Positions 3,066 through 40,490 of a stretch of DNA of 64,000 bases are shown one piece after another. Position 1 is the stretch's first letter. Each line of letters starts with the position of its first letter. The translations under genes and the position numbers were made by a program. Origin of the DNA: Escherichia phage vB-Eco-KMB26; the sequence record OR539218.1; one strand, 5' to 3'. Below the pieces are notes generated by a model, which saw nothing but the letters and a program-made list of their open reading frames with translations, ran no database searches and had not been told where the DNA came from.

Positions 3066-3325
3066 AAAAGATTCCTTTTAATGTATCTTTTAGACCATTC
3101 TATCATATCATCATAATCTAAAAAGTATTCATCAAATTCAGCCATGCAAACAACGCCTTGTGCTGCTTTTGATGTGATATAAATTATTCCAACATATCTA
3201 GAATCTTCTTCGGTATAATCAATGTTTGCTATGAATTCATCATTAATGTCAAATGTCGAAAACTTCACAGTATGCATCCTTAATACAAGATACGGCCATA
3301 TCTCGTAATGATTTAGGTGTGTCAT
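3062..3325 (-). CDS. Small hypothetical protein at the 46.1 position; true start uncertain (internal Met at 3277 possible)
   Basis: 87-aa ORF overlapping gene 46 by 4 nt. Confidence 0.5.
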   Translation of the reverse strand: MTHLNHYEIWPYLVLRMHTVKFSTFDINDEFIANIDYTEEDSRYVGIIYITSKAAQGVVCMAEFDEYFLDYDDMIEWSKRYIKRNLL

Positions 3326-3512
3326 TATCTAAAATGTTGAAGTTAAAGGATACAGCCCAGTCAGTGCAGACCGTAACCTTTTTAATACAATTATCTTCAA
3401 CCTCTAGCGGTTCAAACCAATATTCAATAATTTCTTTATGCCCAATATCATCTTTTACTTCGCATTCAAAATGCTGACTCATCATAACATTTTTAAATTC
3501 ATCAAAAGTCAT
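3249..3512 (-). CDS. Small hypothetical protein at the 46.2 position
   Basis: 87-aa ORF; stop overlaps neighbouring ORF, start overlaps gene 47 stop. Confidence 0.55.
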   Translation of the reverse strand: MTFDEFKNVMMSQHFECEVKDDIGHKEIIEYWFEPLEVEDNCIKKVTVCTDWAVSFNFNILDNDTPKSLRDMAVSCIKDAYCEVFDI

Positions 3513-4528
3513 TGTGTTGCCTCTACATATAACTGATTTGCATATTGAATAAGTGCTTCACGGTCAGAATCAGTGATGTCTGGAATTGCATTAATGTATT
3601 CTTCCATCAACGTCTGAAGAGATTGAACTTCAACCTCTTCGCTGTCATCTGACTCGACAGAGTTATCAATCTTTGACACAACTCGTAACGAATGCACAAC
3701 TTTCTCTAGTTCAGATTCGAACTTCGTCAGATTTTTGTCTACTTCAGTTACTATAACACGTACTGATAGATTTGTAAAATCTTTATAGTCAATTTTTCCT
3801 TTAAATGGATAATGAATTCTACGATGCCAGGTAGTATTGTTTGGAATAAATTCCATTCGTTCTGTTTCTGTATCAAACATCCAGAACCCACGAGGGTCAT
3901 TCTCGTCACCTGCAGTTAGTGTCCATGGTGTCCCAATATATCTGACGTTAGCAGCCTCAGAAATAGTATGGAAGTGACCAGACCACACTTCTTTATAAGT
4001 CTTAAGGAAATCAGGTTCAAGACCGTGAGATTTCATTCCTTTATAAAAATAAAATCCATTCAGTTCCCAGTGACCAACACAAAAAGAAGCAGATGAAGTT
4101 TTGATATGCTCAAGAATTTCACCAGTATTTTCTTCACACATCCAAGGAATTAAATCAATTAAACATCCGTCAAAATCTACTGTAGTAGGCTTATCATATA
4201 CTTTAACATTAGGATATTTAGCCAAAAGCTCAGTAGAGGCATTTGGAGTTAAAGTATTTTTAAAGTGCATATCATGGTTTCCTACAATAGTATGTAGGGT
4301 AATACCAGCATCATCAAGCATTTGAACTATTTCACGGGCGAACTCCATAGTTTTGTGTGTGATTGCTTTTCGCACATCAAAAATATCACCGTATTGAATC
4401 CAGGTAGTAATTCCATTTTTCTTAGAATATTCTATTGCTTGTTTAATTCCATCCAACTGAATGGATTGAACCCACTCATCATCGGCTTTAACGCCTAAAT
4501 GCCAATCACCTAAATTTAAAATTTTCAT
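3509..4528 (-). CDS. 47: Recombination exonuclease subunit gp47 (Mre11/SbcD-like phosphoesterase)
   Basis: 339-aa ORF; motifs GDWHLG, GDIFD, GNHD; matches T4 gp47. Confidence 0.93.
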   Translation of the reverse strand: MKILNLGDWHLGVKADDEWVQSIQLDGIKQAIEYSKKNGITTWIQYGDIFDVRKAITHKTMEFAREIVQMLDDAGITLHTIVGNHDMHFKNTLTPNASTELLAKYPNVKVYDKPTTVDFDGCLIDLIPWMCEENTGEILEHIKTSSASFCVGHWELNGFYFYKGMKSHGLEPDFLKTYKEVWSGHFHTISEAANVRYIGTPWTLTAGDENDPRGFWMFDTETERMEFIPNNTTWHRRIHYPFKGKIDYKDFTNLSVRVIVTEVDKNLTKFESELEKVVHSLRVVSKIDNSVESDDSEEVEVQSLQTLMEEYINAIPDITDSDREALIQYANQLYVEATQ

Positions 4529-31719: not shown

Positions 31720-32136
31720 TTAAATGTAAATATTTTTGCCGTAATACTTATACCAGTGTGGCTTCATTAAAATTTTTTCATCGAGTCGTTGTTGACTCAA
31801 CTTAATAGCTGATTTGCATGGATTATAATCATTTTTCCATTCTACTGGAATATCGCTGATGTCAGGAACTTCAGTATCTTTTATACTGAACCCGCGTTTT
31901 AAGCATTCCGTTATAATGTCCGATTGACGCTTTCGCAAAAATTCTAACTTATCGTAAAAGAAAGTAACATGACCAGAACCTAAAATAAATTTAGAAGATA
32001 TTTTAAAATCTTTAACGCGCTTACCGTTTGCCACATGCTTACGAACTATACCAAAAACACGCGGCAATTCACGGTATTCTGCGATTAAATGTTGATCAGC
32101 AAGTTCAGATACTAAAGTCAAATTAATACGAGTCAT
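31720..32136 (-). CDS. denV: Endonuclease V (pyrimidine-dimer DNA glycosylase)
   Basis: 138 aa; [17 protein letters not shown]... matches T4 DenV. Confidence 0.92.
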
Positions 32137-32154
32137 TTTATCCCTCCAAGTAAC

Positions 32155-32191
32155 TGTGAATATACTATCACAATTCTAGGAGAAAGTAAAC
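32155..32191 (-). promoter_or_regulatory. Early promoter upstream of denV (-35 GTTTAC, -10 TAGTAT)
   Basis: Minus strand GTTTACtttctcctagaattgtgaTAGTAT. Confidence 0.5.
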
Positions 32192-32195
32192 AACT

Positions 32196-32726
<531 letters not shown>

Positions 32727-35009: not shown

Positions 35010-35603
35010 TTATTTCAGAGAATTAATGTATTCCTGAACATCGGCAGAGGTAGTTTCAACCCCAGAAATATTACCGTTAAAGGTTTCAACTCGAGCAAGG
35101 GTATCTTCAATATCAACCTTAGTCAGTGCTGCAATTTCAACTACATCATCGGCAGTACTAATTCCAAGGGCATTTGCTGCACGAGTTTCACGGATATATT
35201 CCAATTTAACCGCAAGTTCTTGACGAGCATCATCTAACTCAACTACTTTCTTGGCGATTTCAATTCGCATTTCAGCATAACCGTCAGCCTTAGTAGTCAA
35301 CTGCTCAGCTGTTCGACGATATAGTAAACCGAGTTTAGCATGCATTGTTACATCTTGGCCTTCGGAAAGAAGTTTACGAATTTCACGCTCTTTTGATTCG
35401 GCCTGTCGATTCTTTTCGATAACAAGTTCACGAATACGTTTTTCTTCGTTAATAGATTTAACAGAAGCAGTTTTTAGATCTTTAATTTTATCAAGTAGTT
35501 TTGCTGCTGCAGCAGTATACTGTTCTTCGACAGATAGATTTTTAGCCATAGCAGAACCAAGTTTAGTGCGAATAAACTCAACAATTTTCTTCAGTGTGTT
35601 CAT
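35010..35603 (-). CDS. Coiled-coil protein (possibly PspA/ESCRT-III-like; speculative)
   Basis: 197 aa, largely heptad-patterned. Confidence 0.5.
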
Positions 35604-35646
35604 AGTATTTCCTTAGGTTAATTGAGATTTAAAATCCATGAGAGTA

Positions 35647-35823
35647 TTATACTCCGGATAGTTTGTAAACTATTTCAACATCGCCTTTTGCTGCTTTATA
35701 ACCTTCAGCCCAAGATACAACCGAGTTTTTATCCGAAGATTCAAATTCTGGCATTGGGCTTTCGCCAATGTTCACGCAGTATGTTTCTTCATTTTCGTCG
35801 AACCAAATAATTAAAGTAGTCAT
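35647..35823 (-). CDS. Small acidic ORF (58 aa) with GGAG RBS
   Basis: Hand translation MTTLIIWFDENEETYCVNIG...; promoter-like element upstream. Confidence 0.4.
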   Translation of the reverse strand: MTTLIIWFDENEETYCVNIGESPMPEFESSDKNSVVSWAEGYKAAKGDVEIVYKLSGV

Positions 35824-35854
35824 TTATTTCTCCGTTTTCTGTATTTGTTTTGAT

Positions 35855-35892
35855 AAGTCTATAATAACACCGTCCTTGGCGTTTGTACACAA
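35855..35892 (-). promoter_or_regulatory. Early-promoter-like element (-35 GTGTAC variant, -10 TATTAT)
   Basis: gataagtctataataacac...gtacac on plus strand. Confidence 0.35.
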
Positions 35893-36156
35893 TTATTTCA
35901 TATTATTGAAATATTCTTCTGCGATTTCATCGTTATCATGGTAAACTTTAGAAGACAGTTTAACATAACCTTCAGCAGTGAACATGTTAATCACAACCTT
36001 TACAGTATACCACTGACCATCTTCATTACCCATTACTGCATAGGTTTCAAACATCGGATGGTCAGGACCGATAACTTTAATATCATTCACTGTACGACCG
36101 AAATCTTCTGAAACACATTTCATAAAGAAGTTGAACAGTTCGCCGTAATTATCCAT
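35893..36156 (-). CDS. Hypothetical small acidic protein (ORF track extends to 36168)
   Basis: Start MDNYGELF after GGAG RBS. Confidence 0.5.
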   Translation of the reverse strand: MDNYGELFNFFMKCVSEDFGRTVNDIKVIGPDHPMFETYAVMGNEDGQWYTVKVVINMFTAEGYVKLSSKVYHDNDEIAEEYFNNMK

Positions 36157-36186
36157 TTCATTCTCCAAGTTGTTTTTGTATCAGTA

Positions 36187-36278
36187 GTTGATAGTTGTAT
36201 AGTACCATGGAAGAACAGGGATGTAAACAGTTGTTGATAGTTGTATAGTACCATGGAAGAACAGGGATGTAAACAGTT
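36187..36278 (-). repeat. Exact tandem duplication (2 x 46 bp), each copy a complete early promoter
   Basis: gttgatagttgtatagtaccatggaagaacagggatgtaaacagtt occurs twice back-to-back (36187-36232, 36233-36278). Confidence 0.9.
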
Positions 36279-36408
36279 TTGTGAAAAAATTTTTTAAAAA
36301 GTTTTAGGGAATTCTAGGGCAGGGAGGGGCAATTAAAAGATAGGATAATATATTATAAAGGGTAGAAACTAAATGATGTCTAGAGAGGCCCGGAAAGGCC
36401 TAGATACC

Positions 36409-36435
36409 AAAAAGCCCCAACCTTTTGGTCGGGGC
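36409..36435 (-). terminator. Intrinsic terminator GCCCCGACC-aaaa-GGTTGGGGC + U5, downstream of the IP-like gene; near-identical to hairpin at 36964-36990
   Basis: 9-bp stem and T-run read on minus strand. Confidence 0.65.
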
Positions 36436-36443
36436 TAAGAATG

Positions 36444-36917
36444 TTATTTGATTTGTTTAGCAGACCAAATGCGGTCTTTAATAATTTTTTGGATGTCTTC
36501 AACATACTCAAGAGAGTGAACATGTGGGTTATCTTTGAAACTATAAGCACGAGCTAGCTTTTGGCCTTCAGTTTTGATTACTAAAAGCTCTTTAAGGATA
36601 GCTTCATATTTGGAGATAATTCCTTTAACAATATTTTTCTCTTGTGTGACTTTAGGATCTGCTTTAGGAGCAGGTTTACCTGAAGCCTTTGCAAAAGCAG
36701 CTCCAGTAGCAACTAAACTTTTCCAAGCCATACTAACTGCATTCCCTGTAAATCCTTCGGCTTTCATATCACGAGCAAATTGGAATCGTGATTCATCGGA
36801 AGCATCTTTATAGGAATATTTACCCGCGGCAATGGCAGCTTTTGCAACAGCTTGAATTTCAGTGCTAGATGCTTCATTTAACACCGCTTCATTTAAAAAT
36901 TGAGTATATGATTTCAT
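36444..36917 (-). CDS. Internal-protein-like gene with N-terminal capsid-targeting-like sequence MKSYTQFLNEA
   Basis: 157 aa; start resembles the T4 IP targeting sequence MKTYQEFIAE; late promoter directly upstream. Confidence 0.55.
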   Translation of the reverse strand: MKSYTQFLNEAVLNEASSTEIQAVAKAAIAAGKYSYKDASDESRFQFARDMKAEGFTGNAVSMAWKSLVATGAAFAKASGKPAPKADPKVTQEKNIVKGIISKYEAILKELLVIKTEGQKLARAYSFKDNPHVHSLEYVEDIQKIIKDRIWSAKQIK

Positions 36918-36954
36918 CTTATTTCCTGTTTTAATTCGGGGTTTTAATATACTT

Positions 36955-36962
36955 ATTTATAC
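36955..36962 (-). promoter_or_regulatory. Late promoter TATAAATA upstream of the IP-like gene
   Basis: Exact minus-strand TATAAATA about 38 nt before the ATG. Confidence 0.55.
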
Positions 36963-36963
36963 T

Positions 36964-36990
36964 AAAAAGCCCCAACCTTTCGGTCGGGGC
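36964..36990 (-). terminator. Intrinsic terminator GCCCCGACC-gaaa-GGTTGGGGC + U5 at the 3' end of the tRNA/stable-RNA transcription unit
   Basis: Second copy of the 36409-36435 hairpin. Confidence 0.65.
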
Positions 36991-37042
36991 TAAGCCTTGC
37001 GGCAACCTTGTCGGGGTTCCACCTGCTAAGGCAAGTGTTTGT

Positions 37043-37134
37043 ACGAAACGCCGGGATTCGAACCCGGTTATTAAGCAGTTGACGCTACTCAATATTTTTA
37101 AAAGGCCATATCTCGACCATATCCGAACGTTCCG
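37043..37134 (-). ncRNA. tRNA-like stable RNA candidate (acceptor-like stem plus canonical T-arm; no standard cloverleaf found)
   Basis: T-arm CCGGG-TTCGAAT-CCCGG and 7-bp terminal pairing; could not fold a standard D/anticodon arm by hand. Confidence 0.3.
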
Positions 37135-37307
37135 TCAAAAACGCTACTCGGCTTACGGCAAAGATATTTCCTCGAATCGATAATTCGGTGCGCCGTTTCT
37201 GCTGTGATATAAGGGGACATTAACAAAACATAAAGATTTATTAATACCAGTCCTTAAACAGGGAACATCAGTCCGACGACTTGCCGGTAGCGACCCGGCT
37301 TCTTGTC

Positions 37308-37383
37308 TGGTCGAGGCAGTAGGGATCGAACCTACGACCCAGGACTTAGAAGGTCCTTGCTCTTCCTTCTGAGCTATGCCTCG
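37308..37383 (-). tRNA. tRNA-Arg (anticodon UCU), CCA encoded
   Basis: Hand-folded cloverleaf: 7-bp acceptor, anticodon loop cuUCUaa, T-loop TTCGATC. Confidence 0.85.
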
Positions 37384-37387
37384 TATT

Positions 37388-37462
37388 TGGCGGACGTGAT
37401 AGGATTCGAACCTATAACCAATCGCTTAACAGGCGATCGCTCTGCCATTGAGCTACACATCC
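37388..37462 (-). tRNA. tRNA-Asn (anticodon GUU), CCA encoded
   Basis: Hand-folded cloverleaf; anticodon loop cuGUUaa. Confidence 0.8.
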
Positions 37463-37466
37463 AAAT

Positions 37467-37553
37467 TGGTGGGGAGTGGTGGAGTCGAACCACCCGAGTC
37501 GCAATGACAATGAATTTACAGTCCACACCGCTACCTCTACGGGATAACTCCCC
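37467..37553 (-). tRNA. tRNA-Tyr (anticodon GUA), long variable arm, CCA encoded
   Basis: Anticodon loop cuGUAaa; 87 nt; perfect acceptor stem. Confidence 0.7.
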
Positions 37554-37562
37554 AAATTAATT

Positions 37563-37637
37563 TGGTGGCCCTGGGTGGAATTGAACCACCATCTGGCGAT
37601 TATGAGTCGCTTGCTTGAACCTTCCAGCTACAGGGCC
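37563..37637 (-). tRNA. tRNA with CAU anticodon (most likely the AUA-reading tRNA-Ile by position; Met not excluded)
   Basis: Perfect 7-bp acceptor; anticodon loop cuCAUaa; position matches T4 tRNA-Ile. Confidence 0.7.
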
Positions 37638-37638
37638 T

Positions 37639-37714
37639 TGGTGCTGATTGACGGAATCGAACCGCCGACCTTCTCATTACAAGTGAGTTGCTCTACCTAC
37701 TGAGCTAAATCAGC
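37639..37714 (-). tRNA. tRNA-Thr (anticodon UGU)
   Basis: Hand-folded; anticodon loop cuUGUaa. Confidence 0.85.
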
Positions 37715-37719
37715 AAAAC

Positions 37720-37809
37720 TGGCGGAGGCGATAGGATTTGAACCTATGAGTCGCCGGAGCGACTGCCGGTTTTCAAGACCGGTGCATTAAACCACTCTGC
37801 CACGCCTCC
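37720..37809 (-). tRNA. tRNA-Ser (anticodon UGA), long variable arm
   Basis: 90 nt; anticodon stem CCGGU/ACCGG; loop cuUGAaa. Confidence 0.85.
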
Positions 37810-37811
37810 AG

Positions 37812-37885
37812 TCTCCGTGGCAGGATTTGAACCTACGACATTCTGCTCCCAAAGCAGACGCTCTACCAAACTGAGCTACACGGAG
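37812..37885 (-). tRNA. tRNA-Pro (anticodon UGG), no encoded CCA; abuts tRNA-Ser
   Basis: Hand-folded; anticodon loop uuUGGga. Confidence 0.85.
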
Positions 37886-37895
37886 TAAATTAAAT

Positions 37896-37969
<74 letters not shown>

Positions 37970-37974
37970 AAATT

Positions 37975-38061
37975 TGGTGCGAGAAGTGGGACTCGAACCC
38001 ACAAGGAAATCATTCCGCAGCATTTTAAGTGCTGTGCCTTTACCAATTTGGCCATTCTCGC
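37975..38061 (-). tRNA. tRNA-Leu (anticodon UAA), long variable arm
   Basis: 87 nt; anticodon stem CAGCA/UGCUG; loop cuUAAaa. Confidence 0.85.
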
Positions 38062-38062
38062 G

Positions 38063-38135
38063 CTGGGAATAAAGGACTCGAACCTTTGCATCCTGGAATC
38101 AAAATCCAGTGCCTTACCAACTTGGCTAATTCCCA
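38063..38135 (-). tRNA. tRNA-Gln (anticodon UUG), no encoded CCA; abuts tRNA-Leu
   Basis: Hand-folded; anticodon stem CUGGA/UCCAG; loop uuUUGau. Confidence 0.85.
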
Positions 38136-38921: not shown

Positions 38922-39106
38922 TATTCACCTTTAGAAATTTTATCCATAACAATAGCAATTAAACCAATTAAAAATGCTACTACAAGTGAAAAAACATTTT
39001 CTGCCGTAGTCAATAATCCGCATATAAATCCAACAAACATTGAAAAACTGAAAGCGGAAGCAGAAATTGCAATAGCAACATTTCGAATTAATTCACAACG
39101 TTTCAT
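38921..39106 (-). CDS. Small membrane protein
   Basis: 61 aa, almost entirely hydrophobic; own early promoter upstream. Confidence 0.5.
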   Translation of the reverse strand: MKRCELIRNVAIAISASAFSFSMFVGFICGLLTTAENVFSLVVAFLIGLIAIVMDKISKGE

Positions 39107-39127
39107 TTTATTCTCCTCAGTAGTAGA

Positions 39128-39164
39128 TAGGGTAATAGTATCACTACCCTATCTAAAAGTAAAC
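39128..39164 (-). promoter_or_regulatory. Early promoter (-35 GTTTAC, -10 ATACTATTAC variant)
   Basis: gatagggtaatagtatcac...gtaaac. Confidence 0.5.
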
Positions 39165-39398
39165 TTATTTTTTACGAAAAATTGATTTATTTTCTGCTGC
39201 CCATTTTTCAATAACTGCAGCAGGACCAGTAACAACAATTTTATCACCGTAATCTTCTGCGGCGAGTTGACCGAAATTATCTAATGCATCACGAAGAACT
39301 CCATGAGGCATTTCACCCATTTTATCTTTCTTGCCAGTGTAAATAAACTCAACTTTTACATCAGCAGTTTCAGCAATAAATTCTTGGTAAGTTTTCAT
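39165..39398 (-). CDS. Internal protein (IP-type) with exact capsid-targeting sequence MKTYQEFIAE (ORF track extends to 39410)
   Basis: N-terminal 10 aa identical to the T4 IP targeting sequence as recalled. Confidence 0.65.
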   Translation of the reverse strand: MKTYQEFIAETADVKVEFIYTGKKDKMGEMPHGVLRDALDNFGQLAAEDYGDKIVVTGPAAVIEKWAAENKSIFRKK

Positions 39399-39424
39399 TT
39401 TGATTTCCATTTGGTTTTGTTTTG

Positions 39425-39462
39425 ATAGGGTAATAGTATCACAACTAAAACCCTATGTAAAC
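39425..39462 (-). promoter_or_regulatory. Early promoter (-35 GTTTAC, -10 ATACTATTAC variant)
   Basis: gatagggtaatagtatcac...gtaaac. Confidence 0.5.
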
Positions 39463-39474
39463 AACTTTGTGAAA

Positions 39475-39732
39475 TTATTTTAAATCTTCTAATCGTTTCT
39501 TCATCTTAGAGCCATTTTTAGCAATTTCTCCTGCATCGGAGCATAATGCTAAAAGTGCTTTAACTTTAGTTTGGTCTCCTTTAAAAGATGAAGGATCGAC
39601 CGCAGCAGCAAGTTCTTTAATACGAGAGAAAAGACGCTCAGCTTCAGCTAAAGCCATTCCAAGCTTTACTTCCATACCGTGGGAAGATTCAGTAATAGTA
39701 GTTTTTGTAGCAAACTCTTTGAAAGTTTTCAT
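39475..39732 (-). CDS. Internal-protein-like protein with targeting-like N-terminus MKTFKEFATK
   Basis: 85 aa; N-terminus resembles MKTYQEFIAE. Confidence 0.55.
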   Translation of the reverse strand: MKTFKEFATKTTITESSHGMEVKLGMALAEAERLFSRIKELAAAVDPSSFKGDQTKVKALLALCSDAGEIAKNGSKMKKRLEDLK

Positions 39733-39755
39733 TTTTATTTTCCTAATTAATTTTG

Positions 39756-39793
39756 ATGTGGTAATAGTATCACTACCTCATCAGTATGTAAAC
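39756..39793 (-). promoter_or_regulatory. Early promoter (-35 GTTTAC, -10 ATACTATTAC variant)
   Basis: gtggtaatagtatcac...gtaaac. Confidence 0.5.
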
Positions 39794-39805
39794 AACTTTG
39801 TGAAA

Positions 39806-40490
<685 letters not shown>

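Follow-up and report, generated by a model that had tools for sequence, protein, structure and literature searches.

Between rnaC and e.8, the stretch of DNA analysed here (64,000 nt of Escherichia phage vB-Eco-KMB26, record OR539218.1; hereafter the window) carries a compact cassette, in which a short reading frame, ORF157, is preceded by a T4-type late promoter octamer and enclosed by two copies of a terminator repeat. We put at roughly two in three the probability that this is a late IP-type cassette, bounded by hairpins, whose product is a head protein addressed by a capsid targeting sequence (CTS). Just as probably, the rnaC-e.8 gap is a third, previously unrecognised IP-type hypervariable locus holding a self-contained late-gene cassette. 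The published picture confines IP genes to two loci (Arbiol et al.; Silas et al. 2025, 'the two Ip loci'). Contrary to that picture, and absent from the literature that we searched, are both the rnaC-e.8 locus and the ORF157 family as an IP type.

The ORF157 cassette and its surroundings

The window belongs to a T4-like (Tequatrovirus) genome, for which the nearest record is Escherichia phage vB_EcoM-fFiEco06 (99.9% identity over the 2.1-kb interval 35600-37700). In the direction of transcription, and with names taken from the T4 annotation, the genes run 57B, IP genes, trna.4-trna.2, tRNAs, rnaD, rnaC, ORF157 cassette, e.8 and e.6 (Table 1). ORF157 thus lies in neither of the classical IP loci, 57B-trna.4 and denV-e; a placement at the classical ipI locus was considered and rejected, since the T4 annotation puts the site between rnaC and e.8. 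The window has a classical locus of its own (39165-39732), whose two IP genes fall in PHROGs 8111 and 3499 ('internal virion/head protein'), and in the denV-e gap (31720-32690) denV and e are adjacent, with no ipII or ipIII at this site, unlike T4.

Table 1. Features in and around the ORF157 cassette, in order of transcription (positions in the window; the arrow marks a gp21-type junction)
Feature	Positions	Strand	Details
tRNA-Arg	37308-37383		precedes rnaD/rnaC, nine more tRNAs before; ARAGORN
rnaC and rnaD homologues	37042..37305	minus	alignment to annotated T4; transferred coordinates, approximate to ~2 nt
Upstream repeat copy	36959..36994	minus	36-nt direct repeat, terminator inside
Upstream stem-loop	36991..36968	minus	loop GAAA, T-run 36967..36963; fold and terminator scan
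T4-type late promoter octamer TATAAATA	36961..36954	minus	exact match
Shine-Dalgarno AGGA	36924..36927	minus	6 nt before ATG; read from sequence
ORF157	36917..36444	minus	157 aa, start MKSYTQFLNEA; ORF list and PHROG 2280 assignment
ORF157 leader, codons 1-15	36873..36917	minus	MKSYTQFLNE↓AVLNE↓A, two L-N-E gp21-type motifs
Downstream repeat copy	36404..36439	minus	36-nt direct repeat, terminator inside
Downstream stem-loop	36436..36413	minus	AGCCCCGACC-AAAA-GGTTGGGGCT, T-run 36412..36408
e.8	35893..36156	minus	next gene downstream of cassette, own early promoter

Several features of the neighbourhood were noted in passing. The two classical IP genes (region 39090-39830) encode proteins of 77/81 aa (MKTYQEFIAE...) and 85 aa (MKTFKEFATK...), and both are preceded by a repeated element, ATTTCACAAAGTTGTTTACATA...GTGATACTATTACC, that contains an early promoter and a weak stem-loop; repeated early-promoter elements of the IP locus are credited to Repoila 1994, cited here through Arbiol et al. 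2010. The tRNA cluster (37308-38135) comprises 10 tRNAs and lacks segB, while that of T4 comprises 8 tRNAs and segB; in ESCO58 (positions 3154-3678 of locus L003) an extra 117-aa ORF and a tRNA-His lie beside tRNA-Arg. The early promoter before e.8 (TTTACA-17-TACTAT with TG) sits in a 46-nt tandem duplication (36182-36273, 45/46 identical). It is single-copy in T4, fFiEco06 and ESCO58, and the best GenBank matches span 49-51 nt only, which marks the duplication as either private to this genome or an artefact of assembly.

The two copies of the 36-nt repeat are spaced by 555 nt and agree at 34 of 36 positions. Their stems have 10 bp each, one G.U pair included, with TTTTT after each, and the downstream stem-loop starts 8 nt past the ORF157 stop codon. 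An earlier note on this DNA had been right to report two near-identical flanking terminators; it counted 9 bp in the stems, where we find the 10 bp at 36413-36436 and 36968-36991, and it confined the difference between the copies to the loop. One loop base does differ, and a second mismatch lies one base past the T-run. The folding energy is -20.3 kcal/mol (z = -3.8) for the upstream hairpin and -19.7 for the downstream one, with none of 200 shuffles as stable. Both were called by a terminator scan, on the minus strand only, and the 64-kb window has exactly two matches to the 28-nt hairpin pattern, with 0 expected. The upstream hairpin probably ends the transcription unit of the tRNAs, rnaD and rnaC; the equivalent single hairpin of T4 stands ~50 nt downstream of annotated rnaC.

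The exact late octamer, to which the earlier note had attributed transcription of the ORF, is indeed present, one position away from where it had been placed (36954-36961, not 36955-36962). It begins 2 nt past the upstream T-run, and 36 nt separate its end from the ATG. Such octamers are not enriched in the window (13 against 11 expected), and the weight that we give to this one comes from its position after the upstream terminator and its conservation in relatives, not from the count. In 16 of 17 cassettes of the PHROG 2280 family, from five genera, the ATG is preceded at 26-40 nt by TATAAATA or AATAAATA, against a background of <1% for the exact octamer in a 75-nt window, and the depositors of fPS-90 labelled the same site 'predicted late promoter'. 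The sequence that follows TTTTT is AGTATAAATA at the upstream copy and GGTATCTAGG at the downstream one, so that the repeat stops inside the promoter position. The duplicated element is the terminator alone, with the late promoter outside the repeat and after the upstream copy only.

Occupied, empty and diverged sites among T4-like phages

T4 has exactly one hairpin and no gene between rnaC and e.8, and the window exceeds T4 here by exactly 555 nt, made up of one repeat unit, the promoter and the ORF. The single T4 hairpin is chimeric: its loop, GAAA, is that of the upstream copy in the window, and its tail, TTTTTGGTATCTA, that of the downstream one; the loop base (G/A) is an unreliable crossover marker, several occupied genomes having GAAA in both copies. 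The empty state recurs in T2, T6, RB3, PST and others. Alignment across the T-even genomes, which the earlier note had proposed, bore out its suggestion: the hairpins are the exact boundaries of presence and absence, T4, T2 and T6 each having a single hairpin and no gene. On this comparison of sequences, the two 36-nt terminator copies are seen as the edges of the variable unit.

Ten of 60 records, sampled evenly from 579 that bear the flank, were empty, and an ORF157 homologue at at least 60% identity was found in 484 records against the 579 with the flank. About 84% of T4-like GenBank genomes are therefore occupied and about 16% empty, the latter being an estimate from two indirect routes, as BLAST joining of the two hairpin-flank pieces confounds an exact count. 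A search of IMG/VR via e.8 yielded only 10 loci. The hairpin with its tail was found at 282 places in 277 records; at about once per genome, it behaves as a locus-specific element and not as a dispersed repeat.

The site can also hold two genes. In three relatives (L007, L008 and L014) a second cassette comes right after the first, with AATAAATA followed by a 187-aa frame, ORF187 (MKTYAEFLTE↓A), which was found in 165 records; the stem-loop that ends this second cassette differs, yet closes with the same tail, GGGCTTTTTGGTATCTAGG. Two others (L010 and L012) have a 205-aa variant that starts MKTYNEFLNESVLNE↓A. In fPS-90 the annotated order is terminator, predicted late promoter, g136c, terminator, g135c, terminator, and both proteins bear the depositors' name 'Phage protein'.

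Some records contain reduced forms. ORF157 is shortened to 93-97 aa in three cases (P0018, P0032 and P0034), and in several records the matching region is annotated as two ORFs, which suggests frameshifted or decaying copies. In a 94-aa form on a 2.9-kb contig (P0013), the C-terminal part of Trna.3 runs in frame into the final 32 residues of ORF157; either the tRNA/rnaC/rnaD block has been lost entirely in nature or the contig is an assembly chimera.

Other genera bear on which of the two states came first. Mosigvirus JS09 has a family member at the syntenic site (tRNA-Arg, one ORF, family member, e.8-like gene, e.6), and Tegunavirus fHe-Yen9-01 has two PHROG 2280-family members in tandem. In Jiaodavirus KEN39 the tRNAs are followed, after ~200 nt, by the hairpin-promoter junction GGGGCTTTTTAGTATAAATA and then by MKFKEFLAE↓ASS. 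This terminator-TATAAATA junction is nearly identical to that of the window and the downstream hairpin is unrelated, so the gene can reside at the site without duplication of the hairpin. No family member was found near the tRNAs of phiR1-RT in the old version of its record. Occupation in these outgroup genera favours deletion and allelic replacement over gain of the cassette. Judged from such sequence comparisons, the occupied state is probably ancestral, with the T4/T2/T6 state arising by deletion between the duplicated hairpins.

The opposite course would make the single hairpin of T4 ancestral and have the cassette enter at the terminator of the tRNA operon, duplicating the hairpin. The T4 hairpin is a clean single copy, as this would require, and a double crossover with a donor that is hairpin-flanked on both sides could yield the duplication. 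Nevertheless, we regard insertion as doubtful, with an appreciable but clearly minor chance of being correct: it is at odds with the syntenic members in Mosigvirus and Jiaodavirus and the tandem pair in Tegunavirus, with a cassette in ~84% of Tequatrovirus-like records, and with the Jiaodavirus junction, which exists next to an unduplicated hairpin. As to the tandem pair in fHe-Yen9-01 (a Yersinia phage; positions 1801-2916 of L018), its members are 10 nt apart and the second lacks a promoter of its own, being probably co-transcribed with the first.

Apart from presence and absence, the cassette has diverged alleles among relatives. When the window was compared with the vB_EcoM_G8 type (L005), identity was 93.4% in the rnaC flank and 94% in the first hairpin, fell to 61% in the promoter/5'UTR and 78.6% in the ORF, and returned to 100% in the second hairpin and 98.8% in e.8. 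Correspondingly, dS was 1.13 for the ORF and 0.087 for the adjacent e.8, a 13-fold difference; against L008 the values were 1.5 and 0.5, and in the co-linear relatives L006, L007 and L014 dS was equal for ORF and e.8. The dN/dS ratio of ORF157 was 0.03-0.11, as expected of a real gene under purifying selection. Since the contrast in dS breaks at the hairpins, the block between them has a history unlike that of its flanks. The earlier note had offered the duplicated hairpins as a substrate for exchange, and it gains from the finding that they also bound the block of raised dS between alleles. Taken at the level of sequence, the diverged L005-type allele indicates cassette exchange by recombination at the hairpins.

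Two other accounts deserve mention, one of this divergence and one of the spread or loss of the cassette. An arms-race protein might simply diversify fast under selection, with no exchange at all; anti-defence proteins do evolve quickly, and the locus is variable. We consider this very improbable, as the excess lies in synonymous sites (dS 1.13 against 0.087) with dN/dS at ~0.1, and the non-coding 5'UTR is likewise reduced to just 61% while the adjoining hairpin is at 100%. Alternatively, conversion of the tRNA region by a segB-type homing endonuclease could carry the cassette along in mixed infections and leave the hairpin repeat no role. T4 has segB in its tRNA cluster, fPS-90 has a homing endonuclease beside tRNA-Arg, and it has been published that SegB causes the tRNA region to be inherited preferentially (as cited in PMC4122927). 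This too seems improbable to us, if less so than diversification: the boundaries of both indel and mosaic fall on the hairpins to the nucleotide, and the tRNA cluster of the window is devoid of an endonuclease gene. The two processes are not exclusive, and segB-type conversion can act together with hairpin recombination. Recombination at the hairpins also agrees with what is known of T4, in which <50 bp of homology is reported to be enough (Singer 1982, as cited in Arbiol 2010), and it has a precedent in PeSL and IP-locus elements, which show the same recombinational behaviour. The shortness of the repeat, at 36 nt, counts against it.

Leader, body and possible virion association of ORF157

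The reading frame given by the earlier note, 36444-36917 with the start MKSYTQFLNEA, is present on the minus strand, and its leader fits the mapped CTS determinants. In IPIII, residues 1-10 are enough for packaging; within the CTS, targeting depends mainly on residues 4 and 7 and processing on residues 8 and 10, with gp21 cutting after L/I-X-E (PMC9026906). ORF157 agrees at all four of these determinants (Y4, F7, L8 and E10), and its Y4 and F7 are the same as in the leader of IPII and IPIII (MKTYQEFIAE↓A). Of 15 family leaders, 14 have Y or F at position 4, and 14 have F at position 7. The start MK[ST][YF]xxF is shared by just three ORFs of the window, ORF157 and the two classical IPs.

The L-N-E motifs of the leader lie at L8-N9-E10 and L13-N14-E15, with the junction E↓AS as in IPIII (IAE↓AS). 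The second gp21-type site goes back to a tandem duplication of 15 nt (36871-36881 and 36886-36896), which gave FLNEA-VLNEA; shorter alleles (153 and 154 aa) are without the 5-residue insert, and the doubled motif recurs in the unrelated 205-aa variant.

The leader is kept across the family (for example MLKFNEFLAE↓G, MINFSDFLNE↓G and MKSFSSFLNE↓G), and the bodies fall below 25% identity; by BLASTP, ORF157 and ORF187 share the leader alone (7/11 identical). The predicted mature ORF157 has 142 aa, a mass of 15.5 kDa and a pI of 9.6, compared with pI 9.56 for IPII and 9.65 for IPIII. An AlphaFold2 model (pLDDT 75) shows an all-helical protein whose leader is disordered and whose Lys/Pro/Ala linker is predicted with low confidence. 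ORF157 belongs to PHROG 2280 (E = 2e-60, function unknown), the sole PHROG matched, and depositors nearly always label its homologues hypothetical. It matched no Pfam family (one sub-threshold chance match) and no NCBIfam. Foldseek searches with the model gave only E > 1 against the PDB and only the protein's own family in BFVD, and a profile search of 1.84 billion representatives returned 13 matching clusters, none of known function. Homology of the body to IPII or IPIII was examined and rejected, as hhalign covered the leader alone at a probability of 12-19%; nor did the body show homology to the named IP families (IPI PF11634; PHROGs 4363, 7857, 5341, 8111 and 3499). The description of the gene as IP-like in the earlier note therefore holds for the leader, which fits the CTS, and does not extend to the locus, which is neither classical one, or to the body.

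A homologue of ORF157 has been reported in purified virions. The g140 protein of phage fD1 (98.7% identical to ORF157) is flagged as particle-associated by published LC-MS/MS (PXD026812); cleavage of g140 after E10 or E15 would give N-termini that read AVLNEASSTEIQAVAK (A11) or ASSTEIQAVAK (A16). The known IP of fD1 is g146. The list is unspecific and includes DenV, lysozyme e, NudE and dNMP kinase (gp1), and with such non-structural enzymes among the proteins the g140 signal shows expression and co-purification only. The neighbours of g140, g138 and g139, were not flagged in the same LC-MS/MS. The paper on fPS-2/65/90 contains no virion proteome.

ORF157 might instead be an ordinary late protein outside the virion, a 'moron'-style gene whose leader is inherited or coincidental and no longer targets. 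The unspecific fD1 list leaves room for this, as do the nearly uniform 'hypothetical' labels and the position of the gene outside the two IP loci. We judge it unlikely, since conservation is highest in the leader of proteins whose bodies have diverged past BLASTP detection, the CTS is matched at each of its four mapped positions, a late promoter suits the needs of a head component, and g140 was detected in fD1 virions when g138 and g139 were not.

Proposed mechanism and comparison with known systems

For a CTS-targeted head protein, we infer the packaging, processing, injection and target of ORF157 as follows. The upstream hairpin would stop transcription of the tRNA operon, TATAAATA right after it would drive late transcription of ORF157, and the downstream hairpin would insulate e.8. 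Residues 1-10 of the precursor would serve as the capsid targeting sequence and carry ORF157 to the core of the prohead; gp21, the prohead protease, would then remove the leader after L-N-E (at E10 and/or E15), and the product in the head would be a basic, helical protein of 15.5 kDa. Mature ORF157 would be injected together with the DNA and would most likely counter host defences on the model of Ip1-3, of which Ip1, Ip2 and Ip3 each disarm a different GmrSD-type restriction enzyme (Silas et al. 2025). Homologous recombination between the 36-nt copies, or with the hairpin of a co-infecting relative, would delete the cassette or replace its allele.

A broader proposal, which we offer tentatively and at clearly less than even odds, is that PHROG 2280 may constitute a widespread, unrecognised class of head-packaged and injected proteins, encoded at a third IP locus that would be ancestral to Tevenvirinae and lost in T4, T2 and T6, with alleles and paralogues that each neutralise a different defence. 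If so, the loss from the laboratory models T4, T2 and T6 would explain why a third locus was missed, and the alleles and paralogues of PHROG 2280 would add to the differences in host range among therapeutic T4-like phages. The third locus, occupied in most natural T4-like phages and by several diverged, leader-bearing forms, would add candidate anti-defence factors, and many of the carrier phages are under development for therapy. For recombination, the locus offers a clean natural case in which a 36-nt terminator repeat marks the boundaries of deletion and of allele replacement. The general principle is not new and the gain is incremental: cassettes in which repeated regulatory elements enclose IP-type genes are a kind already known (Repoila 1994; Arbiol 2010).

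The closest parallel is with the IPs of T-even phages, for which we draw on Repoila et al. 1994 (as presented in Arbiol 2010, Silas 2025 and the Black review), Mullaney and Black 1996 and Silas et al. 2025. Like ORF157, T4 IPI, IPII and IPIII and their T-even variants have a short leader with an aromatic residue at position 4, Phe at 7 and L/I-x-E at 8-10; like the ORF157 family, their mature proteins are small, basic and mutually unrelated, and their genes are non-essential, present or absent among relatives and sometimes in tandem arrays. ORF157 differs in its locus, which is rnaC-e.8 and not 57B-trna.4 or denV-e, in having a late promoter where the classical loci have repeated early-promoter elements, and in a body unrelated to any named IP; its packaging into the head and injection are, moreover, predictions.

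A second parallel is with the PeSL (promoter-early stem-loop; Arbiol et al. 2010, Comeau et al. 2014). Here, as in the ORF157 cassette, a terminator stem-loop element stands on both sides, a single chimeric element replaces the cassette in a close relative, and recombination between elements has been proposed. However, the repeat described here is a terminator only, with no early promoter and with the late promoter unduplicated, and the hairpin occurs at one locus only (two copies in the 64-kb window) and is not dispersed in hyperplastic regions. An assignment to PeSL in the strict sense was rejected on these two grounds, the missing early promoter and the lack of dispersal. Finally, the cassette resembles the morons of lambdoid phages (Hendrix and colleagues), in which one accessory gene with its own promoter and terminator lies between two conserved genes; in contrast to these, the terminators that flank ORF157 are themselves the breakpoints.
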